DNA of 64,000 bases from Candidatus Scalinduaceae bacterium (GCA_046759445.1 JBHICG010000005.1:40352-104351); one strand, 5' to 3'. Positions 33,052 through 57,283 are shown, counted from the first letter of the stretch. Numbers and translations are program-made. Notes: a model not told the origin generated them from the sequence alone.

Positions 33052-34259
33052 AAATAAAATTTACAGAGATAGATCTTAAGAAGCCATTGCAACCAATTTA
33101 TGTTGATACGAGGTATAGTCGTCTCTTTGTACTTGTGTGTTGGGGCTATTTACCAATTGGAATGTTTCAGTTGGCATGCCAACCCAACTTACGCACTTTT
33201 AGTGTTGAGCAATTGCAGAATGAAATTCTTAAATTCGTTGGCTGGCAACTATGGGAACAAGCCGTTGCAGGTACTCTGAATGATTTAAAAGGAGGTACAG
33301 CTCAATCATTTCCACCAATCAGTGTAGTGGTTTGTACACGTGATCGTGCCCTATCATTAGAGCGCTGTCTTCAGGCGCTGGCAGATCTAGATTATCCTAA
33401 TTACGAGGTTGTGGTTGTCGACAACTGTTCTCAAGATAAAGAGGTGAGAGAGGTTGTAAATCGAAGAGGTTTTCACTATGTTCGCGAAGACAAATCTGGA
33501 CTTAATTGGGCGCGAAATAGAGGCATCAAAGAAGTAAAATTTAATATTATTGCTTACATTGACGATGATGCGCTAGCCGCTCGTGGCTGGTTACGTGGTA
33601 TAGCAAAGGGGTTCGAGGACCCGGATGTTATGGTTGTGACCGGCATGGTCCTTTCTAGTGAGTTTGAAGCATTAGCCCAAATTGCTTTTGAAAGCTATGG
33701 TGGAATGAGCAAAGGTTTTATAGGACATAAGATTAAGCGAGATGAACTTAGTAAACGAGATTTATTCTGGGCTAGCAACTGGGGAGTTGGGGCAAATATG
33801 GCTTTCAGACGTACCTTGTTTGAAGCTATCGGCAATTTTGATGTTGCATTAGACGTCGGGACACCCACCAATGGTGGTGGTGATGTTGAATTTTTCTACC
33901 GAGCCGTTGCAGTGGGATATACTCTCTGTTATGAGCCGATTGCAATGGTTCAACACGTTCATCGGAGAGATAATGCAGCACTCATGCGGCAAGTTTACAA
34001 TAACGGCCGCTCTTTTGCTACTTACTTGCTAACTATAGTTCGTAATGAGCCGTATAGGTGCTTCGAAATATTGTGGTTTGCGCTACGCTGGTGGATATGG
34101 GATTGGCAGCTTCGAAGACTATTCATCGGTATTATTAAGCGTGACAGAGAGACACTGCGATTGGCTCTTACAGAATTAAAAGGATGCTCATCGGCACCAT
34201 GGGCATATTGGAAATCTCGGAAGATAGCATTGCTGTTAATGAAGGACAATCATTTATAG
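33048..34259 (+). CDS. Glycosyltransferase family 2 with N-terminal accessory domain
   Basis: SVVVCTRDR, GLNWARNRG, YIDDD and GANMAFRR motifs. Confidence 0.9.
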   Translation: MKIKFTEIDLKKPLQPIYVDTRYSRLFVLVCWGYLPIGMFQLACQPNLRTFSVEQLQNEILKFVGWQLWEQAVAGTLNDLKGGTAQSFPPISVVVCTRDRALSLERCLQALADLDYPNYEVVVVDNCSQDKEVREVVNRRGFHYVREDKSGLNWARNRGIKEVKFNIIAYIDDDALAARGWLRGIAKGFEDPDVMVVTGMVLSSEFEALAQIAFESYGGMSKGFIGHKIKRDELSKRDLFWASNWGVGANMAFRRTLFEAIGNFDVALDVGTPTNGGGDVEFFYRAVAVGYTLCYEPIAMVQHVHRRDNAALMRQVYNNGRSFATYLLTIVRNEPYRCFEILWFALRWWIWDWQLRRLFIGIIKRDRETLRLALTELKGCSSAPWAYWKSRKIALLLMKDNHL

Positions 34260-34451
34260 ATGATTAATAGCTCACATCTAAAACATGCAAACTAATATAG
34301 ATAAGATGCGGTCTACATATAATCAGAAGACGTTTGTGAAATTTGTTTTCAGTTCTAAAATAACGAAATTACCATAAAAACTCTGATACACAATAAAACA
34401 ATAAATTATCACTTTTGAAATAAGTTATTCCTGAAAGAGATTAACGGAGAA

Positions 34452-35297
34452 ATGAAAATGCATGAAATACAACTGGGATGGCCACCAGGCCACTTTTATT
34501 CACCAATTCCATCCATAGAAGAAGTAAAAATTAAAGAAAAAAAAATTTTCAACAATATTCCAAACAAAATTTCAGGAGTTAACTTAAACGAAGAAGGGCA
34601 ACTTAATTTATTACGTCAGCTTAAGAAATATTATGGCAATCAACCATTCGAAGCTTACAAAAAAGAAAAATTAAGATATTTCTTTGAAAACCCTAATTAC
34701 TCTTACGGAGAGGCTGTTATTTTACATTGTATGATTAGATACACACAACCAAAAAAAATTGTAGAGATTGGCTCAGGCTATTCCTCATGTGCAATTTTGG
34801 ATACAAATGAATTTTTTTTTGACAATGCTATTTCCTGCACCTTCATTGATCCTTATCCACAATTAATACAGTCCCTAATCAAGGATAGCGATATAGGTAA
34901 GATCGAAATTATTCAAAAGAATATTCAAGATGTCGAGATAGATAGGTTCTCGAAATTATCTGCAGGAGATATTCTTTTTATAGATTCTTCCCATGTTTCC
35001 AAGGTAAACAGTGACGTAAATCATATTTTTTTTGAAATCTTACCTTATATCAAGCGTGGTGTATATGTTCACTTCCATGATGTTGGATATCCTTTTGAAT
35101 ATCCGAAAGAATGGATATATGAAGGTAGAGCGTGGAATGAAGCCTATTTGTTGAGAGCATTTTTACAATATAACAACATATTTAAGATACAATTCTACAA
35201 TTCATTTTTAGCATGCATTTATAAAGACATCGTTAACGATAATATGCCTATATTTATGAAAAATCCAGGTACAAGTATCTGGATTCAAAAAATCTAA
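34452..35297 (+). CDS. Class I SAM-dependent methyltransferase (Methyltransf_24-like)
   Basis: PPGHFYSP, IVEIGSGYSS, LFIDSSH, VHFHD and WNEAYLL motifs. Confidence 0.85.
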   Translation: MKMHEIQLGWPPGHFYSPIPSIEEVKIKEKKIFNNIPNKISGVNLNEEGQLNLLRQLKKYYGNQPFEAYKKEKLRYFFENPNYSYGEAVILHCMIRYTQPKKIVEIGSGYSSCAILDTNEFFFDNAISCTFIDPYPQLIQSLIKDSDIGKIEIIQKNIQDVEIDRFSKLSAGDILFIDSSHVSKVNSDVNHIFFEILPYIKRGVYVHFHDVGYPFEYPKEWIYEGRAWNEAYLLRAFLQYNNIFKIQFYNSFLACIYKDIVNDNMPIFMKNPGTSIWIQKI

Positions 35298-35530
35298 ATC
35301 TAGTAAATATTCTGCCTGCAAAAGTGAGCAAACAATTTTGTGGAATCTCTAAATTGGACAATCCATCGGAGACACAGAAGGGATATGGTGGAGTATCTAA
35401 CGAGGAAGAGGAAATGGCAGCTAAACACTATCAATGTTCAAGGTAAAAATCTCTCTTTTTAGAAAGGTTTCTGGTAAATCCTAAGCTATTAGAGTTGGAA
35501 AAGTTATTACAGATTTTAAGGGGTTAATTA

Positions 35531-36322
35531 ATGAATGACGTAAAAATTGCTTATGAACCCGATCTTATACCACCGCTTAATCTGATGCGTGAGGAAGGCA
35601 TAGACGTTCTTGAAGATTGGTTTCGATGGGGTGAAGAGTGGAGTATGCTCCTGCGTGTTTACGGTGGAATAGCCATGAACAGCAAAATCCTTGAAATAGG
35701 CTGTGGGCTTGGACGAACCGCATTTCCTCTACGCTATATCCTGTCAACCGATGGCTCGTACGACGGATTTGAGATATGCCATAACAAGATTGAATTTCTG
35801 GAAAAACATTTTCATAAGGCATATCCAAACTTCCACTTTATTTGGTCTAATATTCACAATACTTACTACAATCCTCAAGGACAGATATGTGCTGCTGATT
35901 ATCGCTTCCCTTATTCGAATAACTCGTTTGATATTGTCTATGCAGCTTCAGTTTTTACACACATGTTACCCGAAGCAGCCGCAAATTATTTCCGGCAGAC
36001 GGCTCGGGTACTTAAGCCAAATGGTTGCTGTATCTTTTCCTTTTTCTTACTCGACAATTATCAACCTCGACAGTCACGTCCATTCAGATTTGCACATTCC
36101 AGATTTAATTTTGATTATTATTATGGTAACTACGGTGAAGATTTCGCTATCGCAGAACCAGAGAACCCTGAGCAGATGACGGCTTATAGCCTTCATTTAA
36201 TCGAACGCATTGCAACTCAGGCAGGCTTAAAACTGATAAGGACTTCTATGCCAGGTTGCTGGTCTGGTACTACATCAGCCTGGATCAGTGCACAGGACCT
36301 GGTAATCCTCAGAAAATACTGA
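35531..36322 (+). CDS. Class I SAM-dependent methyltransferase
   Basis: ILEIGCGLGR, FPY..NSFD, SVFTHM and RVLKPNG motifs. Confidence 0.88.
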   Translation: MNDVKIAYEPDLIPPLNLMREEGIDVLEDWFRWGEEWSMLLRVYGGIAMNSKILEIGCGLGRTAFPLRYILSTDGSYDGFEICHNKIEFLEKHFHKAYPNFHFIWSNIHNTYYNPQGQICAADYRFPYSNNSFDIVYAASVFTHMLPEAAANYFRQTARVLKPNGCCIFSFFLLDNYQPRQSRPFRFAHSRFNFDYYYGNYGEDFAIAEPENPEQMTAYSLHLIERIATQAGLKLIRTSMPGCWSGTTSAWISAQDLVILRKY

Positions 36323-36409
36323 TTGAAAACGAATGAAGCAAGCTTAAAGCGGAAGTCAATCTGTGGATATTTTTTGTAAATCTCATAAAAACAAATTACT
36401 GATATAATC

Positions 36410-37957
36410 ATGTTAATATCCTCAAAATGGTTTAAGAAGCAAATACTGATCTTTATGGTGATTTGTGGGGTACTAAGTTCTATTTATTACTTTAGCTGGT
36501 GGTTCGAACCAAATCGTCTTAAAAGTCCAGTATTTTTGGTATTTTTGGTTGTAGCGGTTATTTATTATCTTGTTCGAGTTTTCTCCGTTTGGTATATCTA
36601 CCTGCATGCTAAGCTTCCAGAGACCGTTGAGCCACCATCTGACCTTACGGTGGATGTATTCATCCCTACATACAACGAACCCCTCAGGCTAGTCGAACGT
36701 ACTCTGAAGGCTGCTATAGCTATACGTTATCCTCACCACACTTATCTCATTGACGATGGACACAAGACCGAATATCACCAACTAGCCAAAAGTTTAGGAG
36801 CACATTATCTATCTCGTCCTACAAATGAAGACAATAAAGCGGGAAACATTAACAATGCTCTGGCGCATTCAACTAGTGAATTTATTGCTATCTTTGATGT
36901 GGACCATATCCCGGCACCGGATTTTCTTGATCGCTCCCTGGGGCCTTTTAGTGATCCAAAAATCGGCTTCGTTCAGGTTATGCTCAGTCATTACAACCAG
37001 GGTGAGAGTTTCGTAGCCGATGGGGCCGCCGAGAGGAATGACAGCTTCTTTGGTGCACCGATGTTGGGGCTACATGGCTGTGATAACGCACACGCCTTCG
37101 GTAGTAACTGCATCTTGCGTCGCAAAGCTCTGGTATCTATCGGTGGATACAAACCAGGCTTATCTGAGGATTTAAATACATCTATTCATCTTCATGCAAA
37201 CGGTTGGCGTTCACATTACGTACCAGAGGTTTTAGCACAAGGACTTGAACCAGATGATCTAGAGTCCTTCTTCAAACAGCAATTCAAGTGGTCGAGTGGG
37301 GTTTTCACTGTTCTGAGGGATATCTATCCACGTCTGGCAAATCGCCTTAGTATGAAAATGAATATCTGCTACCTATGGCGGTTATCCTGTTACCTGGCTG
37401 GTCCAATGGTGGGCATACATTTACTGTTTACCATCCTAGTTCTATTCCAGGGTTCAGAGATTGCAACTTCTTATTTTGTAGATTATCTGATACATGGGTC
37501 ACCATTTGTCATCATGTCCACCATCATCACATATTTTGTGAACAAAAACTACCGCACAGCTCCATTATCTCACGCTAAAATACCATTGTGTGGCTTGTTC
37601 CTGGCCTATGGTACCTGGCCGGTTTATACATTGTCTTTCATCTATTCACTTTTCGGTATTAAAGTTCCCTTTATTGCTACGCCCAAAGAAGCCAAAGGTG
37701 GCAACTTCCTGAAACTCATCCATCCACAAATCATCACCGTGATATTACTAATCGCAGCTATCATCTGGAGATTATATCAGGGCATTGATTATTCCTGTAT
37801 GTTTATCATCTCTTTCGCCTTGTTACAAGTTTTCATGCATGGTGGAATCTTCTATGCCGTGTATGAGGGGTGGCACAAGTGTTTTCAAGTTAAAACAGTC
37901 AGATTGCACACTCGGCTACCCGTCAAAGTTGAGCATCCCTACACCATTGTTAATTAA
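36410..37957 (+). CDS. Membrane-embedded processive GT2 (cellulose-synthase-like)
   Basis: VDVFIPTYNE, DDG, KAGNIN, FDVD, SED and QQFKW (QxxRW variant) motifs; multiple TM helices. Confidence 0.87.
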   Translation: MLISSKWFKKQILIFMVICGVLSSIYYFSWWFEPNRLKSPVFLVFLVVAVIYYLVRVFSVWYIYLHAKLPETVEPPSDLTVDVFIPTYNEPLRLVERTLKAAIAIRYPHHTYLIDDGHKTEYHQLAKSLGAHYLSRPTNEDNKAGNINNALAHSTSEFIAIFDVDHIPAPDFLDRSLGPFSDPKIGFVQVMLSHYNQGESFVADGAAERNDSFFGAPMLGLHGCDNAHAFGSNCILRRKALVSIGGYKPGLSEDLNTSIHLHANGWRSHYVPEVLAQGLEPDDLESFFKQQFKWSSGVFTVLRDIYPRLANRLSMKMNICYLWRLSCYLAGPMVGIHLLFTILVLFQGSEIATSYFVDYLIHGSPFVIMSTIITYFVNKNYRTAPLSHAKIPLCGLFLAYGTWPVYTLSFIYSLFGIKVPFIATPKEAKGGNFLKLIHPQIITVILLIAAIIWRLYQGIDYSCMFIISFALLQVFMHGGIFYAVYEGWHKCFQVKTVRLHTRLPVKVEHPYTIVN

Positions 37958-38237
37958 TTCGAGTCTCCGTTCTATTCACATAGTCACAATATAATATTAC
38001 ACTGTAAAATCTCTTTTATTTACAAGTTTAGTTGTATTCGTATTAGCGGAAACAATGGAAAGTCTCCATTGGAGATTGCTAGTGTAAATACAAAAGGTGT
38101 AAATTGGGTCAAATTTTATCAAAAACAGTAACACTAAACGGACACGGTACTCATAATTTGTATATCCTGGGACGAAATGCCGAGTTCAAATACGAGAGGA
38201 TTGATGATATCTTCCTTTCAGCAGAAAATATCATCAA

Positions 38238-39902
38238 ATGTATTCAACAGTTATAAAATTTAAGATGAATAAAACCCAGAAGTTTCTGCTAAAGAATGAA
38301 AAACTATTTAAGCATTCTTTAATTGCTATTGGAGTCTCTTTGATTTTAATTGGGATCTTTGTTGATTTCTCCTGGTTGAAGGCAATTGCTGATTCTTATG
38401 CGGCAGATGGTATTTGCGAGCCTTGTAATATACTTAATCCGTCTTTTATGATTCTTCCTATTGGTGGAAGTGCCATAATCATATTTGCAATCAAATACCT
38501 TAATGACTTATTAAATAGAACAAACGACCTAAAGAAGATTCTTGGCTTGGCTATTTTTTTTGCACTTGTACTGTACTTAATGTCATCTCAGATTAGATAT
38601 TTCGATGATGATGAACATGAACATTTACACAAAGCATGGCTTTTACAAGAAAAAATAATTCCTTTCATCAGCGTAAACTCAATGCATACTCCCTTACTCG
38701 AGTGGCTTATTGTCTTATTTATGCAAATTACTGGAGAGTCAATAACCATTGTACAAACAATGAGGGTATTTATTTTTTTTGTTTCATGCTCTTCGTTGTG
38801 CCTAACATACATAATCATAAAAGAATTATTTCAATCCAAAATCAATGCATTGCTTGGAGTATTGCTAATAATAAGCAATCTAGTGTGGATCCATAAGTCT
38901 CCTGAAATCAGACCTGATAACATCATGCTTTTCTTTGTATTGCTTTCATTTTGGATTCTGATTAAATATTACAAAAATCCAAAAACCAAATACTTGTTTA
39001 TGTTTGGCTTGTGTGCTTTTTTATCTATGCTTGGAAAGCAAAATGCAGCTATTTTCTATTTTGCTTTAGGAGTAGTCTTTGGTTATGATGCTATTTTCAA
39101 GAGGAAATTATTGAATAAAAAAACAATTATTTTTGGAATAATCAGTGTGGTAATTTTATTTCAGATAGATGTTATACGGGAATTCTTCATGGTAAATATT
39201 ATGAGACACATAATACCAAATGAAAGTAAATTTTTACCGGACAAACTCTTAGCAAAAGTTTGGTTGTTTAATCCAGCAATATTTTTACTGTTCATTTTTC
39301 AGTTATTTTCTCCAATAAAGTTCGACAAGAAATACGATCTTTTTAAAAAATATTTGATTGGTGTTTCTTTTACATGTTTCGCATTTTTATTCTTTATGAA
39401 CTTTCCTTGGTTACAAGAAATGCTGGTAATGGTCGTATTTATGGGGATACTTGCCTCAAACATGCTTGCGGAAATAATACACAAATTAAACTGGAAATTG
39501 GGTTATATCCTTGTCGGCGCAATAATAATGCCTACTTTAATACTTACAACACACACTGTGTTGTTTAGGACATTTACCGATGATATAGAGACAACAAAAA
39601 CAATTCTGGAAATATCTAAAGGAGATGAACTTGTTTTTGATGCATACGGTAAAGCAATATTCAGGCATCATCCGTTAGACCCAAAACATCTTAAATATTC
39701 CTCAAAAAAATTTAACAGTTTATGTGAACTCAAGAAGAGTAATGTGAAATTTATAATAAAAGATTCTCGTGTTTACCCAAAACTACCGAAAGAAACATTG
39801 AACTGGTTTCAAGAAAATTTTATACAAACAAATGAAAATCCAAATATTTTTGTTCGAATCAATTATGCCTACAAAAAAAGCGAGCTGGTACGACCCCATT
39901 GA
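38238..39902 (+). CDS. GT-C fold glycosyltransferase (ArnT/PMT family)
   Basis: About 13 TM helices; DDDEHEH loop; EIRPD and GKQ motifs. Confidence 0.75.
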   Translation: MYSTVIKFKMNKTQKFLLKNEKLFKHSLIAIGVSLILIGIFVDFSWLKAIADSYAADGICEPCNILNPSFMILPIGGSAIIIFAIKYLNDLLNRTNDLKKILGLAIFFALVLYLMSSQIRYFDDDEHEHLHKAWLLQEKIIPFISVNSMHTPLLEWLIVLFMQITGESITIVQTMRVFIFFVSCSSLCLTYIIIKELFQSKINALLGVLLIISNLVWIHKSPEIRPDNIMLFFVLLSFWILIKYYKNPKTKYLFMFGLCAFLSMLGKQNAAIFYFALGVVFGYDAIFKRKLLNKKTIIFGIISVVILFQIDVIREFFMVNIMRHIIPNESKFLPDKLLAKVWLFNPAIFLLFIFQLFSPIKFDKKYDLFKKYLIGVSFTCFAFLFFMNFPWLQEMLVMVVFMGILASNMLAEIIHKLNWKLGYILVGAIIMPTLILTTHTVLFRTFTDDIETTKTILEISKGDELVFDAYGKAIFRHHPLDPKHLKYSSKKFNSLCELKKSNVKFIIKDSRVYPKLPKETLNWFQENFIQTNENPNIFVRINYAYKKSELVRPH

Positions 39903-42786: not shown

Positions 42787-42826
42787 GGAAAAGAGGCACG
42801 CAAAGTATTAAGCGTACCTCTTTTCC
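42787..42826. terminator. Bidirectional terminator
   Basis: ggaaaagaggcacgc...gcgtacctcttttcc between convergent genes. Confidence 0.65.
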
Positions 42827-42837: not shown

Positions 42838-44937
42838 TTAGAGCTGACTCAAAAGCTGAATTGCTTCCAGTACAAGAGGATAGATGAGAGCTTGTGTGGG
42901 ACAATCCTTAATCCAATCGTTCTTATCAGGGCTTCCTGTTAAGGCGCAACCATCCATCTTTTTCAGTATGTCATTTTCAAGCTTATTCAATGCATCCTGA
43001 TATTCACCATTGTCCAGCTTGTCAATCACCGTATTAAGCTTACTCGTTAATGCCTTTTGGTTGTTTGGATTTTTAAATACTCCTGAGTTTGGATCCAACA
43101 AGTTGATTTCATCAATAGATTCCTGAACCTTTGTTATCGTGGCTGTTGACTGTGTGACAGCAGTGATAGTTACCATGCTTGGATCACTGTTTACAGAGCC
43201 ATCATTCACTATCAGGCTTATGATATATGTACCAGCAGCATCAGCCGTAAATGAAGGATTAGGCGTATCAGGGTTAGCCAGAGTTGCCGAACTGGTAGCG
43301 GGTATAGACGTAAATGACCAACTGTACGTCAATGGATTATTATCAGGGTCGGAGCTTCCGCTTCCATCCAGGACTACTATGTCACCTACAAAGACTGAAT
43401 CGTCATTACCAGCATCCGCCACGGGGGCTACATTGATTGTGCTTATGCTTACTGTATCAGGAGCGCTATCTACTGAGCTATCATTAACCACCAGGCTAAC
43501 TACGTAAGTACCTGCAACATCAACCGTAAATGTGGGGTTTACTGAAGTAGGATTAAGCAGATTTGCAGTACTACCAGCAGGTCTTTGCGTAAATGCCCAA
43601 CTATATGTCAAACCATCTCCATCAACATCCCAGCTATTACCTCCATTCAGGACTACTGTATCTCCCACAAATACAGACTGATCACCTCCAGCATCTGCTA
43701 TGGGGGCAGAATTAAGTGTGCTTATCTTTACCTCATCAGGTGTACTGTCTACGGTGCTGTCATTGACTGTCAAACTTACTACATAGTCCCCCGATTTATC
43801 GACCGTAAATGTAGGATGCGCTGGATCGGATGGATTCACAACCAACGTTGCAGTGCTGTCAACGGGCTTTGATGTAAATGACCAATTAAATGTTAAAGAA
43901 TCACCATCTACGTCAGAGCTTCCACTTCCATCCAGCGTTACCAGATCATTAACGAATACCGATTGATCAGGACCTGCATTTGCGACAGGGGCTGAATTGA
44001 GCGTGCTTATGGTTACAGTATCAGGATCACTATCTATAATACCATCGTTAACCGTCAAACTTACTACATAGTCCCCCGCTTTATCAACCGTAAATGCAGG
44101 ATGCGCCGGATCAAGTGGATCTATGACCAAACTTGCCGTACTACCGGCAGGTTGTGATGTAAAAGACCAATTAAATGACAGTTGATCACCATTGGCATCC
44201 CAGCTTCCACTTCCATCCAGCGTTACCGGGTCACCCACAAATACTGACTGGTCTGGCCCGGCATCTGCCACTGGGGTAGCATTACCACCGGAACAGTTGA
44301 CAAACAGCCAATTCGTATTATTGCCACTATCTATGGAATTACATGCATAGATTACGTCTCCATCAATCTCCTGTGAATGGCTAACGTTCAGATAATCAAC
44401 AATAGTCGTTGGCGTGTTCAGATACCAGTTAGTCAAGGGTGTCAAAGGAGCAAGCGTTATATAATTGCCTGATGAACCGTTCACGTTAAATGTAGAAGAT
44501 ATTGTATGGAAACCACCAGTTTCAAAGGACAATTTCTTGACACCTGTTGTAGCGTTTAGGGTGTCACAGTAAAGTTCATCAGTAAATGCAACACCTGATG
44601 AATGTGAATTCAGAACGTCAAGTACGTAAAATGCCGAGCTTGATCCACCTGTTAATACAGACTGTTGATTAGTGGTAGAGTTGAGAATTACCGTACCTGT
44701 GCCGGAAATAAAACTGCCTAAATTATTTGTCCAGTCACCATCCAGGCTAATCTCTCCTGTATTTAATTGAAGCGTTCCAGCATTATCAACGTCTCCTCTC
44801 ACATCCATAGCGCTGGTGTTTACGTTGAAAGTATGGCCAAATGGTATCGTAACCCCCGCAGCGTGAACTGAGCTGGTGCTTATTATGCCGATTAAGGCCG
44901 TTAATAATAATATGAATCTAAATCTAAACCTGAACAT
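42838..44937 (-). CDS. Secreted protein with 4 PKD/Ig-like repeats and a C-terminal helical (FIMAH-like) domain
   Basis: Signal peptide ending VHA; four ~95-aa repeats 'PxAxAGxDxSVF...LDGSGS.D...W...FT.D.AG.Y..SL.VND'. Confidence 0.85.
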   Translation of the reverse strand: MFRFRFRFILLLTALIGIISTSSVHAAGVTIPFGHTFNVNTSAMDVRGDVDNAGTLQLNTGEISLDGDWTNNLGSFISGTGTVILNSTTNQQSVLTGGSSSAFYVLDVLNSHSSGVAFTDELYCDTLNATTGVKKLSFETGGFHTISSTFNVNGSSGNYITLAPLTPLTNWYLNTPTTIVDYLNVSHSQEIDGDVIYACNSIDSGNNTNWLFVNCSGGNATPVADAGPDQSVFVGDPVTLDGSGSWDANGDQLSFNWSFTSQPAGSTASLVIDPLDPAHPAFTVDKAGDYVVSLTVNDGIIDSDPDTVTISTLNSAPVANAGPDQSVFVNDLVTLDGSGSSDVDGDSLTFNWSFTSKPVDSTATLVVNPSDPAHPTFTVDKSGDYVVSLTVNDSTVDSTPDEVKISTLNSAPIADAGGDQSVFVGDTVVLNGGNSWDVDGDGLTYSWAFTQRPAGSTANLLNPTSVNPTFTVDVAGTYVVSLVVNDSSVDSAPDTVSISTINVAPVADAGNDDSVFVGDIVVLDGSGSSDPDNNPLTYSWSFTSIPATSSATLANPDTPNPSFTADAAGTYIISLIVNDGSVNSDPSMVTITAVTQSTATITKVQESIDEINLLDPNSGVFKNPNNQKALTSKLNTVIDKLDNGEYQDALNKLENDILKKMDGCALTGSPDKNDWIKDCPTQALIYPLVLEAIQLLSQL

Positions 44938-45001
44938 AATAACCTTCCTTTCTTTTATTTATGTAGTATTTTTGGCTATTTTCAAAGATACTCTTAACCA
45001 T

Positions 45002-46126
45002 TTAAATCTTATCCTCAAGGTCCCTTACCTTTGCAGAAAGTTCGGATATAATCTTTTGCTGCTCCTGAACAACCTTGGTCAATACTGCTGCTATATCCAT
45101 AGGAGATAAACCTTTACGATCTTGAGTGGCTACAAGTTCCGGTACGTCTTCAGCAATAAATCCAAGGTGTTCTTCTCCAGACCCTTCAGTTTTATATTCA
45201 AACCTTACCGGATTGAGATCATTTAATGCGTCCATTGCCTCCTTTGTTGATATATATGATATATTCTTTTTAAATTCTCTGGATGAGCCTTGGCTTAATG
45301 TCCCTGTTATAGTTAGATTACCTGAAGAACGATCTAATCTCATTGCAGTAGTAAAATTAATATCGGCGTCAGCGGTACCGTTGGGTGCAGTTAAAAAGAG
45401 AAAGTCTCCATTAGTAACTTGCAACACGGCAGCCTCAGCATTTGATGCAATGTATTTAAAGAGCCCATTAGAACCTGTGTAAGTGTTCAGATTTAAACTA
45501 ACAGTACCGCCATCTCCCCAATCAACAAATGCTCCCAGTGGACCTAATTGTACAGCTTTATAGTTAGGATGCCAGGTCTTAAGACTACTGTTGCCTATGC
45601 CGACGTTGCCGCTTGTATCAATAACCATATCTACACTAGAAGAAGAACCATTTGTAAAAAATTTAATACCATTACCAGCTTCTGCCCCCAAAGTCAAATC
45701 TATATCCGAACCTTTGCCACTCATTGAAGCAAATGTGCCTATTCCCCATCTCCATGCCCCATTTATGGATCCAATTACAGATGGTCCTTTTGCATCAGCT
45801 GTATCAACCTGTATAGTTCCGAAAGTAGTTGCACTCTTTACATGTAAAGGTTTTGTTGGAACCGGCGTGCCAATGCCGACATTGCCTTCTACAATCAAGC
45901 CATAGACCGGAGAGCCAGGAGAGCTATGGCCAGCAAAAACCGGCCCAATACCGACGTTGCTATCTCCCCTTGCTCTCATAACTGTATCACCACTTGAATT
46001 CTTAACAGTAAACCCACTGTTTATGTCACTACTATCAAGTGTTACTTCAGTATCAGCAGCATAAGTAACTGAACCTACTCCTAAAAAGAATACACATAAA
46101 CCGACTAAGATATTTCTCCTTATCAT
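45002..46126 (-). CDS. Secreted phage-tail-fibre-like protein with C-terminal peptidase S74 chaperone
   Basis: Signal peptide; GNVGIG repeats; SSREFKKNI...L.PVRF.YK...GFIAEDVPE...coiled coil. Confidence 0.85.
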   Translation of the reverse strand: MIRRNILVGLCVFFLGVGSVTYAADTEVTLDSSDINSGFTVKNSSGDTVMRARGDSNVGIGPVFAGHSSPGSPVYGLIVEGNVGIGTPVPTKPLHVKSATTFGTIQVDTADAKGPSVIGSINGAWRWGIGTFASMSGKGSDIDLTLGAEAGNGIKFFTNGSSSSVDMVIDTSGNVGIGNSSLKTWHPNYKAVQLGPLGAFVDWGDGGTVSLNLNTYTGSNGLFKYIASNAEAAVLQVTNGDFLFLTAPNGTADADINFTTAMRLDRSSGNLTITGTLSQGSSREFKKNISYISTKEAMDALNDLNPVRFEYKTEGSGEEHLGFIAEDVPELVATQDRKGLSPMDIAAVLTKVVQEQQKIISELSAKVRDLEDKI

Positions 46127-46159
46127 CTTCTATCTCCTTTAAAAAAAAATTGAAATTAT

Positions 46160-47227
46160 TTAAATTCTATCCTCTATTACCTTTAATTTCGCAGATAAAG
46201 TAGATATTGTTTCTTGCTGTTCTTTAATTGCCTCGATTAACAATGGCACTAGTTTGGAATATTCAACACCCTTATATCCATCCTTATTGGTATGAACCAC
46301 TTCCGGAACCAATTTCTCAACATCCTGTGCGATAATTCCTATATTATGGTCTTTAGAAAAATTCCTCTCCTTATATTCATCACTACGCCATCTGAAACTT
46401 ACCCCCTGTAAGTTACTCACCTTTTCAAGAGCACCTTTGAGTGGTTTTATATCTTTTTTAAAGCGAACATCACTCGTTAGCACTGTACCGTTAGAACAAA
46501 CCGAACCTGTTACATCCAATTTGCAACCGGGGTTTGTTTTACCGATGCCGACGTTGCCATTTCCTAAAATGATCATTCTGTCGCTTGAGCTTCCAGCGCC
46601 AAATCTCATTGCTCCACCATTTGCCCAGTCGAAACTATAGAATATTTCACCGCCAACGTTACTATCTGGAGAACCAAAGGCAAGCCTGGCATCGTTGTTA
46701 GCACCCGAAGTTAAAATTGATATTCCTGCATGAGCACTACCTTCCACGACAAGGTCATCTGCATTAGAATATGGAGAAATACCCGCATTCCCTTGTTTAA
46801 TGTGTAGTTTACCAGACGGACTCGTTGTACCAACGCCGACATTGCCGTTCTCTGCTATACCAAATCTCCAGACTGGAGCACCATCATCTATAAAAAAAAG
46901 TCCTTCGCTAAGAGCCTGCATTCGCCAGGTTTTTGTTCCTATTCCTGACGTCATCCGTATCATTGGTTGATCGGTTCCAGTAATACTCAAAGCATCGTTA
47001 CTTGCTCCAGTTTCAATATGCAATTTCGCCCCAGGGCTCGTCATACCTATCCCGACGTTGCCATCGCCCCCGGCACGTATTATTGTTTCACCATTAGCTT
47101 TTTTCACTGAAAAGCCACTATTTGCATCATTACTATCAAGTGTTACTTCCGTATCAGCTGCATAAGTAACAGAACCTACTCCTAAAAAGAATACACATAA
47201 ACCTACCAAAATATTTCTCTTAAACAT
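46160..47227 (-). CDS. Secreted phage-tail-fibre-like protein with C-terminal peptidase S74 chaperone
   Basis: Signal peptide; three GNVG(I/V)G repeats; SDVRFKKDI...GIIAQDVE...V.Y..LVPLLIEAIKEQQ. Confidence 0.88.
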   Translation of the reverse strand: MFKRNILVGLCVFFLGVGSVTYAADTEVTLDSNDANSGFSVKKANGETIIRAGGDGNVGIGMTSPGAKLHIETGASNDALSITGTDQPMIRMTSGIGTKTWRMQALSEGLFFIDDGAPVWRFGIAENGNVGVGTTSPSGKLHIKQGNAGISPYSNADDLVVEGSAHAGISILTSGANNDARLAFGSPDSNVGGEIFYSFDWANGGAMRFGAGSSSDRMIILGNGNVGIGKTNPGCKLDVTGSVCSNGTVLTSDVRFKKDIKPLKGALEKVSNLQGVSFRWRSDEYKERNFSKDHNIGIIAQDVEKLVPEVVHTNKDGYKGVEYSKLVPLLIEAIKEQQETISTLSAKLKVIEDRI

Positions 47228-47430
47228 TCTTTGCCTCCTTAAAATAATAAATATTTCAATATAAAATGCAAAATTACGGCAATTACTTTAATGCAAAATT
47301 GCTAAGCAATTCAGTAATAACTGAATTGCCTTAATCCCAAATCCAACTTTCATAGCTCATTGATTATGTAGCGGCCAATATATAACTCCTCACAATCCTT
47401 TCCCTACCTGTAAAAGACAGATACATTCAT

Positions 47431-47508
47431 AAAACAAAAAAAGCCTTACTGCAAAGATATTAATGAAATCGATGTGAATTCACATAAGCCATCCCTGGCA
47501 GTAAGGCT
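47431..47508 (-). terminator. Intrinsic terminator / riboswitch expression platform
   Basis: Perfect 11-bp stem AGCCTTACTGC/GCAGTAAGGCT (47498-47508 with 47442-47452), then a U-tract; the 5' arm overlaps the aptamer 3' end. Confidence 0.75.
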
Positions 47509-47727
47509 GTCTTTTAAAACTATTTCCTTAAAAGTCTTACGAACCTTTACTTAGTTTCTGTTGCGGTGAGCCATCAAACATATGTATGACCTATCGCAGC
47601 AAAAACTACTTGTAGCCCTGTACGATTAAAGACCCTTTAGCTTTGCGCTCCAACTGAAGCTGACCCATTGTGCTGCTTAAGAGAACAATGACAGCCTCGC
47701 TCAAGGATTTGCCTTTATTCGGATACG
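47490..47727 (-). ncRNA. c-di-GMP-I (GEMM) riboswitch-like aptamer with expanded P2 and P3
   Basis: Minus strand reads AATAAAGGCAAATCC...GGAGCGCAAAGCTAAAGGGTCTT...AAGACAGCCTTACTGCC; it lies in the 5' leader of the fibre operon. Confidence 0.7.
47553..47607. mobile_element. 55-bp MITE (AGTTTCTGTTGC terminus, ACTT 4-bp duplication) inside the riboswitch P3 loop
   Basis: actt|agtttctgttgcggt...atcgcagcaaaaact|actt. Confidence 0.6.
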
Positions 47728-48038
47728 GTCTATTATCAAATAACGTTCCCTGTCTATGTCTGCCGAGAAGCAGGAACAGGCATAAACGTTATGATTCCCT
47801 ATAAGCTCGTACAAAAGCAAGATTAAAAGTCAGGAAATTCGATTGATTTATTTGAAGTGTTTCGTGAACCTTGAAACGCAATGTAATTATGTATGATCTG
47901 CTGTTTCTAAAGAACGCAGATATAGGTGAGAATAAATGCGTTACCATAATGGTAAAAGTGGCTTTTCCCATTACTAATACTCCTATTAGTACAAATGTGG
48001 GTAATCACGTCAATATACAAGGTATTATAAGACGCAAT

Positions 48039-48066
48039 ATGATAAAATAATATTACTAATTGTCAA
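48039..48066 (-). promoter_or_regulatory. Candidate sigma70 promoter for the riboswitch/fibre operon
   Basis: TTGACA-N16-TATCAT on the minus strand. Confidence 0.35.
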
Positions 48067-48213
48067 GCATAAACAGGCAATGACAGGAAATATTTTTCTA
48101 TGTCATGGAGTGTCTAAGACTGTCTAAGACAGATTATACGACTAAAGACTAGAGAGAATGTTCACTGTTGTAATGTACACTTTGAATCTATTGTAAAGTT
48201 TTTCTTTTTTGAG

Positions 48214-49059: not shown

Positions 49060-50532
49060 ATGATATGTGTACCTGTTACGGCCAGAAATATTGAAGATGC
49101 TGTCTTTGAAATGTCATCGGCATCTAAACATGCTGACATAGACATAATAGAACTGCGTCTTGATTACATTCCTGAAGTAAAAAATGCTGAAATATGTCTG
49201 GAAAAGTTGTTAAAAGGAAAGACCAAACCAGTCATTGTCACGAATAGACCCAGAAGAGAAGGTGGTAATTTTGAGGGTAGCGAAAAAGATAGATTGTGTT
49301 TGTTACAAAAAGCCATAGAACTAGGTGCTGATTATGTTGATGTTGAATATGATTCGGCTAGTCATATTTCCAGGCGAGATGGTAGCAAAATAATCGTCTC
49401 TTATCACAATTTCAAAGAAACACCTCATAATATAAACAAAATATATGAAGACATTTCTCAATGTAAACCTGACATAGTAAAGATAGTTACCTACGCAAAC
49501 GATATTACTGATAACGTCAGGATATTTGAACTTCTAAAGATTGTAAACATACCTACTATATCCTTCTGTATGGGAGAATTTGGGTGCATAAGCAGGATTC
49601 TTACAAGAAAGTATGGAGGAGTTCTAACCTTTGCTTCACTCGAAAGGGGTAAGGAGTCGGCGCCCGGGCAGTTGACGGTTGATGAATTATCCAACATATA
49701 TCACTTTAAAAGTATAAACGTTGATACAGGGATTTATGGTATAGTTGGGAATCCCATTTCTCACAGTATAAGTCCCATCATCCATAACTCCTCGTTCTCA
49801 GAAAAAGGACTAAATAATGTTTATGTCCCCATGAAGGTCTTAGATATTGGCTCCTTTATTAAGGAATTCAGGAAAATGGATTTGCGGGGTCTTAGCGTTA
49901 CCATTCCGCATAAAGAAAGTATTATTCCTTTTCTGGATGATATTGAGAATACTGCCAGAAAGATTGGCGCTGTCAACACCGTCGTAAACCAAAGAGGCAA
50001 ATTAATAGGCTATAACACCGATTGCATGGCAGCCATAAAGGGTTTAGTGAGCAGTATGAGTGGAGAAGAGATTGCTTTAAAAGGCAAAAAAGTTGCCATT
50101 ATAGGGGCAGGGGGTGCGGCGCGGGCAATTGCATTTGGTTTAAAAGGAAAAGGTTGTGATATTACCATACATAATCGCACCCTCGAACGTGCACATAAAC
50201 TGTCTGTTGATGTTGGATGCGGATTTAAAGGATTTGACGAAATTAAGGAACTCAACACTGACATTCTCATAAACTGTACATCTATCGGTATGTTTCCAAA
50301 GGTTGAAGAATCGCCTGTTCCAAAAGATGTACTAAAGGAAGGTATGATAGTTTTTGACGCCGTTTATAATCCAATTGAAACAAGGCTTCTCCATGATGCA
50401 AAGGAAAGAGGATGCTATACGGTTAACGGACTGACCATGTTCATTAATCAAGCGGCTGAACAATTCAGGCTCTGGACAAATATAGAACCCCCGGTAGAAT
50501 TAATGAAAAATGTTGCAGAGGATGTACTATGA
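49060..50532 (+). CDS. aroE: Bifunctional type I 3-dehydroquinate dehydratase / shikimate dehydrogenase (AroD-AroE fusion)
   Basis: IELRLD, SYHNF and SAPGQ (AroD); HSISP, SVTIPHK, GAVNT, NTD and GAGGAARA (AroE). Confidence 0.92.
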   Translation: MICVPVTARNIEDAVFEMSSASKHADIDIIELRLDYIPEVKNAEICLEKLLKGKTKPVIVTNRPRREGGNFEGSEKDRLCLLQKAIELGADYVDVEYDSASHISRRDGSKIIVSYHNFKETPHNINKIYEDISQCKPDIVKIVTYANDITDNVRIFELLKIVNIPTISFCMGEFGCISRILTRKYGGVLTFASLERGKESAPGQLTVDELSNIYHFKSINVDTGIYGIVGNPISHSISPIIHNSSFSEKGLNNVYVPMKVLDIGSFIKEFRKMDLRGLSVTIPHKESIIPFLDDIENTARKIGAVNTVVNQRGKLIGYNTDCMAAIKGLVSSMSGEEIALKGKKVAIIGAGGAARAIAFGLKGKGCDITIHNRTLERAHKLSVDVGCGFKGFDEIKELNTDILINCTSIGMFPKVEESPVPKDVLKEGMIVFDAVYNPIETRLLHDAKERGCYTVNGLTMFINQAAEQFRLWTNIEPPVELMKNVAEDVL

Positions 50533-51056
50533 ATATAGTCTTAATTGGATTCAGGGGTACGGGGAAGAGTACCGTTGGCAAACTTTTGGCAGATCGTTTG
50601 AAGAGGGATTATGTTGATACAGACGAGTATATCGAGGGTGTCACGGGAAAAACTATTAAGTATATCTTCAAAGAAGAGGGGGAAGAAGGGTTTCGCAAGA
50701 CTGAGGCAGATGCTGTTGCAAAATTAAGCAAGATGGATGATAAGATAATTGCGGCAGGGGGAGGGGTTGTTCTTAGAAATGATAATGTAAAAAAATTGAA
50801 GAATAATGGATTCCTTATACTCCTGGAAGCTACTCCAGAGATCATCCATAATCGCATAAAACAAGATGTAAAAACAACCAACCAGAGACCTTCTCTAACG
50901 AGTAAAAAGCCATTTGATGAAATCAAACACTTAATAGAACAACGCCAGCAGCTTTACGAGAACGCAGCCGACTATACAATAAACACATCCTATATATCAT
51001 GTGAAGATGTTGCTGAAGAGATAGTCACGTTCTTAAAAGACCAAAAAAACAGGTAA
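50529..51056 (+). CDS. aroK: Shikimate kinase
   Basis: GFRGTGKST, GEEGFRK.E, GGGVV and RP motifs. Confidence 0.92.
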   Translation: MNIVLIGFRGTGKSTVGKLLADRLKRDYVDTDEYIEGVTGKTIKYIFKEEGEEGFRKTEADAVAKLSKMDDKIIAAGGGVVLRNDNVKKLKNNGFLILLEATPEIIHNRIKQDVKTTNQRPSLTSKKPFDEIKHLIEQRQQLYENAADYTINTSYISCEDVAEEIVTFLKDQKNR

Positions 51057-53598: not shown

Positions 53599-56223
53599 CT
53601 ATTGATCTCTATTGTTTTCTTTCCCTATATTCTGTTTTTGAATGGTAACCTCATTAGTTTCATAAGGAGTTTTTATAAACAATCTTATTGCTTCTTTTTC
53701 CTCAGACGATAACGATTTATCATTTTGAAATTTATCAGCCAACTCTTTGAATTTACCAACAACATAAGCTTTACACAATGTATTCATATCAAATATAATA
53801 TTACCTTCACGCATTGGTTCCCGCAGGCGCATAAGGAATTTTGCAAATTTCTTAGAATTATTCTTAACAAGTGATAATATATAATTATTGACAATATCCT
53901 TGTATCTACCTGTGGAACTCATCCAATCTGATGACCATTGATATAATACGAATCCCCATTCATTCTCTTTTAACTCCTCAAATATATCTCTCTTTGCGTC
54001 AATAAAATGTATCTTTAATCTACCAGCAACAATATCTTGAATTTTATCACTTATTTTTAGACCATAAATATTATTCACTTCTCCTTTTACCTCTTTTATA
54101 CATTGCAAAACAAAATAAACAGCAAAATGAAGATCAGGTGTTTTTTCAGCAACTTCTTCCAATATTATTTGTATGTTATCCTTATCAGTTTTCTTAATAA
54201 TCAGGTTCAATAAAAGGGAGAGGGCTTTTTCGTATTCAGATTGCTCAAGAAATCCTGAGTCTCCTTTAGAGAAATATTCTGCTTTTTTATAAATAACTCT
54301 TATTATCGCAGTAGCTGTTTCGTGGCTTAGTTCGTCTTTAAATAAAATAATCTTATTTAAAAATTCTTTAAGTCGATCTTTCTTCTGATTTTCAAAAACT
54401 GTTTCTTCAATAATGTATTCTTTCTTATCTTTTTCTTTTGAGTTCCATGTTTCTAAAGTTATTTTGATATACTCATCAGAGACTTCTGATGATGGCACTT
54501 TCAACATAAAATATTTTTTAAATGAATCAGGATGCGTAATCCTTCTTTCTGCTCTATAATCATTTATACAAGATTGATCATAAACTGATCTTTGCTTATT
54601 CAATGATCCTTTGACTTCAACAAAAAATATCTCTTCCAATAATTTTTTTAAAACTATGCCTTCTTTCTGATTTTCACATATTTCTTTAATATGTTCTTCA
54701 ATCTGCTCATATTTTGCATCTTCATTAGTTGAAAGATGAAAGGGAGATGAAAAAAGGCCCATATCACGACTCCATTTTATAGGAATATAATACCAAGGAT
54801 TATTCCATATATCGTCATAAACCTTTGGATAGAAAATTCTTATTATTTCTAGAATACAGAAGTCATATAGACAAACTTCAGCCTTAATTGGAGGAAGTGT
54901 AGAACGTAGGCCGTTTATATACCTTTTAGCATGGCGCAAGGTTTTAAAGAGTCTTCTTATTTGTGTCTGGTACATATAATGAAAAGATAACTCTTTTTCG
55001 AACTTTAGTCTCTCGTCTTTAGCAATATTTATTTCATCAAAAAGTTTATCTAGGCATGAACCTATAAATTCATCAATTTTATTTTGTTCAATAGCCGGCA
55101 ATGGAACAGGTTTCTGCACTATTTTTTCTAAGAATGCAGGGTCAGTCATAGCATTTCCTTCGAGAACTTTTTGAACCGCAATTTGATCAAAACTTAAAAG
55201 AAAAATTGTGTTCTTAAATTTGGTATTAAGACGTACAAGCTTAAAAACAAGAAGTATTTCTTCAGCTTGCAATCTATCAATATCATCAACAATAATTAAA
55301 AGTTTTATCCCTATCTGCTCTATATAAGATTCTATCCTTTGTTTGACTTCCTCAATAGATTCTTCACCGAAAGTAAGGTTATTCATGATCCCTGTTTGCA
55401 ATAATCCTGACGATACTATTTTCAGATATTTATTGAATGCCTTTTTAAGATTAGGGAATATGAACCTTTTGTTTATAGTCCTTTCTATTTCTCCGTAAAA
55501 GGCGGATATAATCGCCTTTTCATCATTGAAGTACCAAGGATCAAAATTAACAACAATAAAGTTTTTGTTATCTTTAAACCTCTCTAGCAATAAATAGATA
55601 GTTGAAGTTTTCCCTTCTCCCCATTTTCCGTGAATACCAAAAACAAATGAATCATTGAAAGGTAAACAAGAAATCTCTTTATACAGATCTTCTATAAATT
55701 TGTTTCTTCCTAATTTGTCATATTTAGCAAGTTTAATTGGTTCATCCGAAAGCGAAATAATATCACTAGTTACAGATGCATTTTCTTTTTTTTTATATTT
55801 CGCAAAACAGATAAATAAAACCCCAACTAATAAAAATATATTAAAAGCGAGAAAACTCCAAAATTCAAAAGATGTCTTAAGAACAAGGTCTTGTTGAAAT
55901 AATAAAATCAGAAGGCATGAGAGGAAAAGGAATATAAATATGTAATCAGGATAGACAAGAGGTGGTTCTGATAATTTGTAAGTATTTCTATACCGTTGAC
56001 AGAATCTTTTTGCTTTGTCACAGAATAGTATTATAAAAATTAATATTGCACTTATAATACCTATAATAGTTTCAAATGTTACTTCAAATAGATATTTCTT
56101 TGGGAAGTTTATCTTTAATAAAAATGGAAGAATACAAAACACAAATAATATTGATGCCAAAATAGTAACAAGAATATTTCTCATATATTTCTTAAATATA
56201 TTTTTTGTTATATTCTTTGGCAT
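53599..56223 (-). CDS. KAP-family P-loop NTPase with N-terminal TM helices
   Basis: DKLGR, GKWGEGKTS (Walker A), FDPW, IIVDDIDRL (Walker B), FLEKIVQ..V.LP and TLR..KR motifs; 3-4 N-terminal TM helices; AT-rich. Confidence 0.88.
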   Translation of the reverse strand: MPKNITKNIFKKYMRNILVTILASILFVFCILPFLLKINFPKKYLFEVTFETIIGIISAILIFIILFCDKAKRFCQRYRNTYKLSEPPLVYPDYIFIFLFLSCLLILLFQQDLVLKTSFEFWSFLAFNIFLLVGVLFICFAKYKKKENASVTSDIISLSDEPIKLAKYDKLGRNKFIEDLYKEISCLPFNDSFVFGIHGKWGEGKTSTIYLLLERFKDNKNFIVVNFDPWYFNDEKAIISAFYGEIERTINKRFIFPNLKKAFNKYLKIVSSGLLQTGIMNNLTFGEESIEEVKQRIESYIEQIGIKLLIIVDDIDRLQAEEILLVFKLVRLNTKFKNTIFLLSFDQIAVQKVLEGNAMTDPAFLEKIVQKPVPLPAIEQNKIDEFIGSCLDKLFDEINIAKDERLKFEKELSFHYMYQTQIRRLFKTLRHAKRYINGLRSTLPPIKAEVCLYDFCILEIIRIFYPKVYDDIWNNPWYYIPIKWSRDMGLFSSPFHLSTNEDAKYEQIEEHIKEICENQKEGIVLKKLLEEIFFVEVKGSLNKQRSVYDQSCINDYRAERRITHPDSFKKYFMLKVPSSEVSDEYIKITLETWNSKEKDKKEYIIEETVFENQKKDRLKEFLNKIILFKDELSHETATAIIRVIYKKAEYFSKGDSGFLEQSEYEKALSLLLNLIIKKTDKDNIQIILEEVAEKTPDLHFAVYFVLQCIKEVKGEVNNIYGLKISDKIQDIVAGRLKIHFIDAKRDIFEELKENEWGFVLYQWSSDWMSSTGRYKDIVNNYILSLVKNNSKKFAKFLMRLREPMREGNIIFDMNTLCKAYVVGKFKELADKFQNDKSLSSEEKEAIRLFIKTPYETNEVTIQKQNIGKENNRDQ

Positions 56224-56591
56224 AGATATTAAGTACTAATGGAAAGATGGGGATACCTAATCTATCGACAAAAGAAAAGGATCAGGTTTGCCCTCGGCAA
56301 TATTTTCTTCGTCCACCAATTGATGGGTTATATGTCTATGTGATATGGTAATGAATCTTGCTTATTAAAAGCAAGACTTAAGAAGATTGTGGAAAATCTG
56401 AGGTTTATGATAGTGATGCTGTTTACTAAAATCAACAGGTTTTTGGGGTTACATCTTCTGTGCGAATCTGTATTAATTCCTGATCGTCCTGTAATCCCGT
56501 CCGAAATATTCTTTCCTCTGCGTTCTTTGCGTCTGCGGTGAGCTAATGTTTTGGCAACCAAGTACACCTAGCAGGTGTATTCTGGTAAAGG

Positions 56592-57056: not shown

Positions 57057-57247
57057 ACCTTTCCCTCCTTGATAAGTTCCATTAATATTTTCTTGAGTTT
57101 TGCACTCATTTTACCCTTTAATACTGTAAATCCGGGCAGTTCGATTTTTACCACTTCTTTTCCGCCTTTGTAAACGTGTATATGCTTGGGTAGATGGTCT
57201 CCTATCCATCACTCAATAATATACCTACCTCTTTTCACTCGTCCCAT
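57053..57247 (-). pseudogene. DUF4160-like toxin gene with in-frame TGA at codon 13
   Basis: MGRVKRGRYIIE*WIGDHLPKHIHVYKGGKEVVKIELPGFTVLKGKMSAKLKKILMELIKEGKV; DHxPxHxHV motif; TGA at 57209-57211. Confidence 0.75.
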
Positions 57248-57253
57248 TTTTCA

Positions 57254-57283
57254 TATACTACTATTATTAGTAGTATAAATCAA
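57254..57283 (-). promoter_or_regulatory. TA promoter with overlapping palindromic operator
   Basis: TTGATT-N17-TAGTAT; perfect inverted repeat TATACTACTA-N4-TAGTAGTATA (57254-57277). Confidence 0.7.

Follow-up and report, generated by a model that had tools for sequence, protein, structure and literature searches.

Cell-encoded fibres with an S74 domain are extremely widespread yet little studied. In the literature searched, the only experimental study of such fibres was made in Bdellovibrio, and among the papers published since 2022 on S74 domains or intramolecular chaperones only that on the mosaic adhesive trimers (MATs) of this organism (PMC10769870) concerned cellular fibres. That paper gives SDxxxK as the catalytic motif, reports that Bd3182 cleaves itself at the catalytic serine and that a Ser-to-Ala exchange blocks the reaction, and describes a β-rich domain of ~130 residues right after the signal peptide in all 21 Bdellovibrio MATs. 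No paper was found that links Scalindua to tail-fibre-like proteins. Here, we describe three genes, named g1, g2 and g3, and their leader in a 64,000-nucleotide stretch of DNA from a Candidatus Scalinduaceae bacterium (GCA_046759445.1 JBHICG010000005.1:40352-104351; the whole stretch is called the window, and positions are counted from its first letter). Our favoured interpretation, held with somewhat better than even confidence, is that the genes form a chromosomal operon of the marine anammox planctomycete Candidatus Scalindua and encode exported surface or matrix proteins of phage-fibre ancestry. Cell-encoded S74 fibres of the MAT/phage type are a known and very common kind; the operon adds a compact member from an anammox planctomycete, a host in which such proteins have not been discussed.

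Two short S74 fibres of phage type

The genes and their main coding features are as follows:

46160-47227, minus strand: g1, 355 amino acids (aa), short fibre, putatively exported (open reading frame (ORF), Pfam match and AlphaFold2 (AF2) model)
47159-47227, minus strand: signal peptide of g1, residues 1-23
46163-46474, minus strand: S74 chaperone/protease domain of g1, from Ser252 (SDVRFK)
45002-46126, minus strand: g2, 374 aa, fibre, putatively exported, paralogue of g1
45005-45286, minus strand: S74 domain of g2, from Ser281 (SSREFK, residues 281-286)
42838-44937, minus strand: g3, 699 aa, PKD protein, putatively exported
roughly 43162-44265, minus strand: four PKD domains of g3, residues ~222-595

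Both fibre proteins carry a C-terminal Peptidase_S74 domain (PF13884; 62.4 bits, E 4.7e-17 for g1 and 42.8 bits, E 6.6e-11 for g2, against a Pfam cut-off of 22 bits), and their shafts repeat the pattern GNVGIGxxxPxxKL. The GNVGIG/GNVGVG repeats of g1 start at residues 56, 128 and 224, and g2 has GNVGIG at residues 81 and 173 and SNVGIG at about 56. Ser252 and Lys257 of g1 (SDVRFK, residues 252-257) are invariant across 66 aligned homologues, g2 included; in the SSREFK motif of g2 a serine replaces the aspartate of SDxxxK, and the catalytic Ser/Lys pair is kept.

A search of g1 against PDB sequences gave five matches at E<=0.01, namely Bd2133 (3.4e-7, through the GNVGIG..P..KL loops), the distal subunit of a phage long tail fibre (3.8e-7), MyRF (0.0022), another phage fibre and a Bdellovibrio 'cell wall surface anchor' protein. 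The AF2 model of g1, built from the 66-sequence alignment, has a predicted local distance difference test (pLDDT) score of 81.1, mostly above 90 over residues 260-355 (the S74 part), and is all-β to about residue 240, followed by a helical/β domain. Foldseek comparison of the model with the PDB returned ten matches at E<=0.001. The best was the intramolecular chaperone auto-processing (ICA) domain of MyRF (7DC3, 7.8e-7, template modelling (TM) score 0.73 on the target), followed by Bd2133 (1.1e-6), Bd3182 (6.4e-5) and the L-shaped fibre of phage T5 with its chaperone (4UW8, 1.1e-4); Bd1334 and Bd2439 were also matched, and the K1F endosialidase (3GW6) was found at 1.6e-2. Among viral structures in BFVD there were at least 500 matches at E<=0.001 (best 6.3e-21), those with names being mostly phage 'Peptidase S74' or 'intramolecular chaperone auto-processing' proteins. 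PHROGs gave 44 families for g1 and eight for g2, nearly all of them tail fibre. By profile score and Ser/Lys spacing both proteins are members of the Peptidase_S74/ICA family, and the predicted structure of g1 has the ICA fold. We conclude that g1 and g2 are chromosomal, signal-peptide-bearing, S74-chaperoned fibres of phage type that resemble the Bdellovibrio MATs, and that they belong, as short representatives, to the same family as the MAT fibres, that of the 'tail fiber domain-containing protein'.

The likeness to the S74 subgroup of the MATs (e.g., Bd3182; PMC10769870) comprises the chromosomal location, the signal peptide and the C-terminal S74 domain with SDxxxK; in addition, the capping-loop repeats of g1 (GNVGIG..P..KL) align to Bd2133 and match Bd3182 and Bd2133 by Foldseek. 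The host, in contrast, is a non-predatory anammox bacterium, and the genes form a tandem pair accompanied by a PKD protein. With phage fibres and tailspikes that have a C-terminal chaperone (K1F endosialidase, T5 and S16/T4-type distal subunits), g1 and g2 have the S74/ICA fold and the Ser-Lys motif in common, and the homology reaches into the g1 shaft (phrog_1980 spans residues 33-352). Unlike the phage proteins, they have Sec signal peptides, lack virion genes nearby and lie on a housekeeping chromosome. MyRF, although the best structural match, resembles g1 in no more than the ICA domain and the loop motif next to it, and is itself a eukaryotic membrane-bound transcription factor.

The N-termini of g1, g2 and g3 all show a K/R n-region, a hydrophobic core of 12-15 residues and a small-x-small site (TYA/A, VHA/A), with the cleavage-site sequences MFKRNILVGLCVFFLGVGSVTYA/AD and MFRFRFRFILLLTALIGIISTSSVHA/AG; residues 2-21 of g1 form a helix in the AF2 model. 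The two fibres are only 33% identical overall, whereas 35 of their first 40 residues and 103 of the first 120 nucleotides are identical, and they thus have the export signal and the fibre base in common, with a different shaft and tip. We read them as putative alternative tips on one common base. The common N-terminus matched no Pfam family, even at E<=10.

The fibre family and its genomic settings

A word-indexed search with g1 scored 7999 candidates, 2964 of which were relatives at E<=1e-3, and an exhaustive search over cluster representatives found 146,276 at E<=1e-3, 54,177 at 1e-10 and 3,405 at 1e-30. Many relatives are giant, reaching 7,725 aa and up to 46 matched stretches, and given the size of the family and the number of giant relatives, g1 and g2 appear as minimal members of a huge repeat-fibre family. 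The best-scoring g1 relatives (P0248-P0392) are giant proteins of 1,200-7,725 aa, which resemble very long fibres of the same repeat since they give up to 46 separate matches to g1. By a crude hydrophobicity rule, 68 of the 120 top homologues have a signal-peptide-like N-terminus. This holds for all five of the closest relatives (P0002-P0006), which also display the N-terminal motif of g1 and the same architecture.

A genome scan returned 612 pattern matches, of which 499 were relatives; the 80 best loci were retained. They cover Bacteroidota, Planctomycetota, the candidate phyla radiation, Elusimicrobia, Nitrospirota and others. None is a close relative (the best are 42-50% identical over the C-terminal part, and none has the g1 N-terminus), and the contig of the window is apparently not among them. 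Two or three co-oriented S74 domains occur in 10 of the 80. Ten loci were sampled for their neighbours, two further ones being left out for size. In all ten the fibre gene is flanked by cellular genes (e.g., adenylate kinase, Obg, MgtE, a sigma-54 activator and glycoside hydrolases), and no terminase, portal, capsid, sheath or baseplate gene was detected beside the fibre among the 102 ORFs scanned. A protein with immunoglobulin (Ig), fn3 or PKD repeats adjoins the fibre in three of the ten (L002, L004 and L025). At locus L041, a PMT_2 gene lies directly 3' of the S74 fibre gene. The 146,276 representatives and the cellular setting in 10/10 loci place g1 and g2 in an already known kind of protein. 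Since the homologues in all sampled loci sit among cellular genes, the family is not confined to prophages or extracellular contractile injection systems, a confinement that an earlier interpretation of this DNA (the sequence-only reading) had named as telling against itself.

The window has the content of an ordinary chromosome. Among its 41 ORFs of >=120 aa, Pfam recognized aconitase, aroD-aroE, aroK, formate-dehydrogenase-like enzymes, multihaem cytochromes and a glycosyltransferase cluster, and no phage structural family. PHROGs matched none of ten re-scanned ORFs (six without a Pfam match, three with one, and one of 103 aa from outside the Pfam set). The Era GTPase is 88% identical to that of Ca. 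Scalindua sediminis and 78% identical to that of Ca. S. japonica. The window is ordinary housekeeping chromosome of a Candidatus Scalindua, outside any recognizable prophage.

The strong full-length similarity to phage tail fibres might also be expected of a decaying prophage or tailocin tail-fibre remnant with no present cellular function, and the nearest structural neighbours of the g3 N-domain, unnamed Uroviricota clusters, offer a lead in the same direction. We consider such an origin highly improbable. The ORFs are intact and have ribosome-binding sites, the three proteins bear signal peptides, for which virion proteins have no use, the catalytic Ser/Lys pair is conserved, the 64 kb gave no phage gene, and the closest relatives (P0002-P0006) keep the same architecture. 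The G+C content of the operon (41.7%) falls between those of the window (38.0%) and the neighbouring aconitase gene (44%) and is in keeping with its surroundings. On these points the sequence-only reading was accurate: it had described three co-oriented genes with Sec-type signal peptides (all three ORFs lie on the minus strand, and the peptides are visible by inspection), two proteins of ~360 aa with GNVGIG repeats and a C-terminal S74 domain, a third with four PKD repeats, and a window free of phage structural genes.

The third protein

The g3 protein has the following parts:

residues 1-26: signal peptide
residues ~27-220: all-β N-domain
residues ~222-595: PKD region
residues ~586-699: helical FIMAH-like tail

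The PKD domains are K319L-like stretches (Pfam E 1.3e-43). The C-terminal 114 residues resemble FIMAH, with an Atlas score of 0.81 and a Pfam match (E 0.011, 16.8 bits) that lies under the cut-off of 24.8 bits. The N-domain matched no Pfam family, even at E<=10, and, apart from itself, has only six relatives, of which one is from Ca. S. japonica. Its Atlas model is nearest to the unnamed Uroviricota clusters (TM 0.77-0.83), followed by right-handed β-helix families (TM 0.5-0.62). Searches by tblastn with g3, its N-domain, its C-domain and the g1 N-terminus gave no match outside the window in the 80 loci, none of which is a close relative. We place the start of g3 at an upstream ATG. A ribosome-binding site precedes this codon, and the alignment with the relatives P0122-P0124 extends through the signal peptide. 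In the public protein collection, g3 (P0121) has 656 aa, begins at an internal Met and has lost the signal peptide. Taken together with the fibres, g3 is probably a glycan- or surface-binding partner that would be exported with them. The part of scaffold or anchor for the fibres, which the sequence-only reading had suggested for the PKD protein, is a conjecture that the 80 loci neither strengthen nor weaken.

The leader and the question of a c-di-GMP-I riboswitch

Upstream of g1, a gap of 986 nt extends to the stop codon of a nitroreductase gene at 48214. Downstream of a promoter-like site, the gap contains in order a 60-codon ORF, an element resembling GEMM-I (the c-di-GMP-I riboswitch class, which binds cyclic di-GMP (c-di-GMP)), hairpin 2, a smaller hairpin, and a long composite hairpin followed by U7GU4:

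48039-48066, minus strand: sigma-70-like promoter match, TTGACA-16-TATCAT, 11/12, the region's best, a lead only
47789-47971, minus strand: putative 60-codon ORF, its ATG preceded at 8 nt by AGGAG, lying between the GEMM-I-like element and the best promoter-like site
47588-47730, minus strand: GEMM-I-like element of unproven status, outer helix GACCGUAUC/GAUAGGUC around boxes AAAGGCAAAUC and GGAGCGCAAAGC
47552-47608, minus strand: hairpin 2, whose 5' arm overlaps the 3' strand of the helix closing the GEMM-I-like element
47430-47508, minus strand: terminator-like element, long composite hairpin 47508-47442 then U7GU4 (inverted repeat I2)
47306-47315 and 47320-47329: perfect 10-nt inverted repeat I4, just before g1, operator-like
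47265-47275 and 47290-47300: direct repeat D5, AATGCAAAATT twice, exact, 25 nt apart

The terminator half of the leader (47425-47590) folds well (z -3.51, with 1 of 200 shuffles folding as well). The terminator-like element lies ~200 nt upstream of the g1 start and does not adjoin the gene. Expression of the operon probably depends on this structured leader of roughly 1 kb, by leader-plus-terminator regulation. A 9-bp complementarity between GAGGCUGUC in the GEMM-I-like element and the 5' arm of the terminator (I6) is within chance expectation. A palindromic sequence, CTGTCTAAGACAG, at 48120-48134 precedes the promoter-like site and recurs in related form at 47408-47422.

According to the description of GEMM (PMC1950547), the first hairpin has a 2-bp stem, a conserved 3-nt internal loop, a 6-bp stem and a GNRA tetraloop; an AAA linker separates the hairpins in 320 of 322 cases, and terminators overlap P2 in 78 of 322. 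The same source places GEMM typically 5' of genes with extracellular or membrane functions, often with a terminator, and reports it as common in some orders of 'Plantomycetes'. If the element at 47730-47588 were such a riboswitch, it would bind c-di-GMP and control the terminator at 47508-47430, and the operon would be on at high c-di-GMP. Several features suit this idea, which we nevertheless regard as rather unlikely. The boxes (AAAGGCAAA and CGCAAAGC) are present. Of the first hairpin, the element has the 2-bp stem and one side (AAA) of the 3-nt internal loop, and it also has the AAA linker (GCGC-AAA-GCU) and the box GCUGC beside an 8-bp closing helix. The setting, 5' of a terminator and genes for extracellular proteins, is typical of GEMM (PMC1950547), and hairpin 2 competes with the closing helix. 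The two-box pattern is rare, occurring once in the 1.19 Mb examined and in 5 of 300 simulated 64-kb windows, figures that apply to a pattern defined after the sequence had been seen.

At the gathering score, Rfam had no match in the whole window, and in the 1.2-kb leader no c-di-GMP family appeared at E<=10. When 156 nt were searched alone, c-di-GMP-I-GGC (RF03167) was the only one of 4227 families to match at E<=10 (RF01051 scored lower), and it belongs to the c-di-GMP-I clan; its 12.2 bits (E 1.5) fall 47 bits short of the cut-off of 59, and the alignment contains a 54-nt insertion and non-canonical P1 pairs. In detail, the boxes (47713-47640) are parted by an irregular 54-nt hairpin that takes the place of the absent GNRA tetraloop. 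The other side of the internal loop reads AGC instead of the consensus GAC, and only three pairs follow in place of the 6-bp stem. P2 in the Rfam alignment is a weak AU/GU-rich stem with mismatches; even a fold with the first hairpin imposed does not contain it. The GEMM pairings have a probability of <=0.001 and lie 10.3 kcal/mol above the minimum free energy (-31.3 vs -41.6), and the GEMM-like domain folds no better than shuffles (z -1.08, 28/200). The terminator is ~80 nt downstream of the element, clear of P2, and forms regardless. No riboswitch was found at the gathering score in 19 related loci and no two-box pattern in the 80. For the leader itself, blastn (word size 7) against the window and the 80 loci gave chance-level matches only, and no homologous leader was found in that set.

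We therefore do not class the element as a c-di-GMP-I riboswitch (RF01051, variant RF03167). It resembles the c-di-GMP-I aptamer in its junction boxes, AAA linker, 2-bp stem, closing helix and position 5' of extracellular-protein genes with a terminator downstream, and differs in its score, its missing 6-bp stem and GNRA loop, its weak P2 and the location of the terminator; at best, it would be a strongly diverged relative. That it is a diverged GEMM-I relative which still functions seems unlikely. Equally doubtful is a more specific version, a remodelled GEMM-I descendant in which the GNRA hairpin has become a 54-nt arm while the junction nucleotides were kept, and which would sense a cyclic dinucleotide and gate the terminator before a surface-fibre operon. 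If true, a remodelled aptamer would link adhesive fibres of phage origin directly to second-messenger signalling, in an anammox bacterium whose growth form is the aggregate. Hairpin 2 and the closing helix are mutually exclusive, given that the 5' arm of the former overlaps the 3' strand of the latter; this is the kind of alternative pairing that an expression platform needs, and no working switch could be derived from it. No GGDEF, EAL or PilZ family was found by Pfam among the 41 window ORFs. The literature search produced no paper linking c-di-GMP riboswitches to tail fibres, and nothing relevant by title or abstract on anammox, c-di-GMP and riboswitches.

The sequence-only reading had placed a c-di-GMP-I-like aptamer and a terminator in the leader. 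The terminator is borne out by our analysis and the aptamer is not, and the descriptions 'riboswitch-controlled' and 'switched on by c-di-GMP' are not supported: besides the deficit in bits, two GEMM hallmarks are missing, the fold is not exceptional, and related loci (0/19 and 0/80) lack the element. The proposal of a domesticated fibre system is retained for its chromosomal, MAT-like S74 fibres of phage type, whereas its switching by c-di-GMP is unproven. The riboswitch link would be the interesting part, and at present it is not supported.

The leader may also contain no ligand sensor at all. In this alternative, which we find plausible though less than probable, the hairpin with its U7 tract ends an upstream transcript, and a separate promoter within the last 200 nt drives the operon, under the control of a DNA-binding protein at the repeats. 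The upstream transcript could be that of the small ORF or a small RNA from the promoter-like site at 48066, or read-through from the nitroreductase gene. The terminator and g1 are 200 nt apart, a promoter-like site is present between them (47272-47244, 9/12), and the AATGCAAAATT direct repeat and the perfect 10-nt palindrome lie together at 47265-47329. The 60-codon ORF with its AGGAG is located between the strong promoter-like site and the terminator, and the terminator was present in both folds that included its 3' arm. However, a transcript made from the 9/12 site would begin ~10 nt ahead of the ATG and therefore at or within the Shine-Dalgarno sequence. Promoter-like sites are not enriched in the region (18 vs 17.3 in shuffles, in a scan of sigma-70 type that leaves planctomycete promoters outside its scope), and neither PHROGs nor NCBIfam contains a relative of the small ORF.

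A model for the operon and points against it

The combined results suggest how the exported-fibre operon that we favour may operate. By the chemistry of the family, the S74 domains would gather three chains after export and the fibre shaft would fold as a trimer. Each chain would then cut itself just before Ser252 (g1) or Ser281 (g2), releasing a chaperone of ~100 residues and exposing the fibre tip. On the precedent of Bd3182, the cut in g1 is expected between Thr251 and Ser252, as the sequence-only reading had proposed. The g3 protein, with its β-helix-like domain, four PKD domains and helical tail, would be exported with the fibres as a glycan- or surface-binding partner. Read-through into the operon would be governed by the structured leader, in which alternative pairings precede a terminator located 200 nt from g1. 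With regard to anammox biology, the operon is a candidate for a role in binding between cells or between cell and matrix. At 355 aa, the signal-peptide-bearing g1 is roughly the smallest example found in nature, and such a small fibre would be a convenient model for the study of folding, self-cutting and passage to the surface in a non-predatory bacterium.

Several points weigh against this account. The model of g1 is a monomer, and its trimeric state is assumed by analogy. At ~355-374 aa, g1 and g2 are much shorter than the MATs (~1000 aa). Their common part, ~37 mature residues, differs from the MAT domain of ~130 residues as PMC10769870 describes it; the part common to g1, g2 and P0002-P0006 is, by the same description, also much shorter. 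The signal peptides of g1-g3 were called by inspection of the sequence. Our own model of the g3 N-domain, based on seven sequences, reached a pLDDT of 42.9 and was not used for a fold search; the β-helix-like character of the domain is a lead from the Atlas's own model. None of the 80 loci has a g3 relative beside the fibre gene. Co-transcription of g1-g3 is suggested by their spacing only, and the terminator formed in both folds mentioned above, with or without the upstream closing helix forced. The most likely function, binding to cell-surface or matrix polymers in adhesion, aggregation or cell-cell recognition, would follow by analogy.

Layout and neighbourhood of the operon

The three co-oriented ORFs are separated by 33 nt (g1/g2) and 64 nt (g2/g3) and are preceded by Shine-Dalgarno-like sites (AAGGAGG for g1, AGGAG for g2 and GGAAGG for g3). 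The end of the operon is likely marked by a stable hairpin:

42787-42826, minus strand: 15-bp hairpin beginning 12 nt past the g3 stop codon, with a weak U-tract (AUUUAA)

This hairpin has a folding energy of -26.8 kcal/mol (z -6.80), and none of 200 shuffles was equally stable. Beyond it, the aconitase gene converges on the operon.

Just upstream of the aconitase gene, a long cluster on the plus strand (26208-39902) includes five GT2 glycosyltransferases, an ABC-2 transporter pair, an amine-oxidase-like flavoprotein, two methyltransferases and a PMT_2 mannosyltransferase-like protein, and could serve surface glycan synthesis or the glycosylation of surface proteins. The only mobile-element family that Pfam recognized in the window is an IS200-like (Y1_Tnp) transposase at 17395-17946 (plus strand). 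On the minus strand, the region 53599-58651 contains a KAP-family P-loop NTPase (874 aa), with a DUF2130 protein and a small ORF without annotation close by; none of the three matched PHROGs, and the region might be a defence-type island. Finally, the plus strand at 49060-51056 has two genes that overlap by 4 nt, one for a fused type I dehydroquinase/shikimate dehydrogenase (490 aa) and one for a shikimate kinase.

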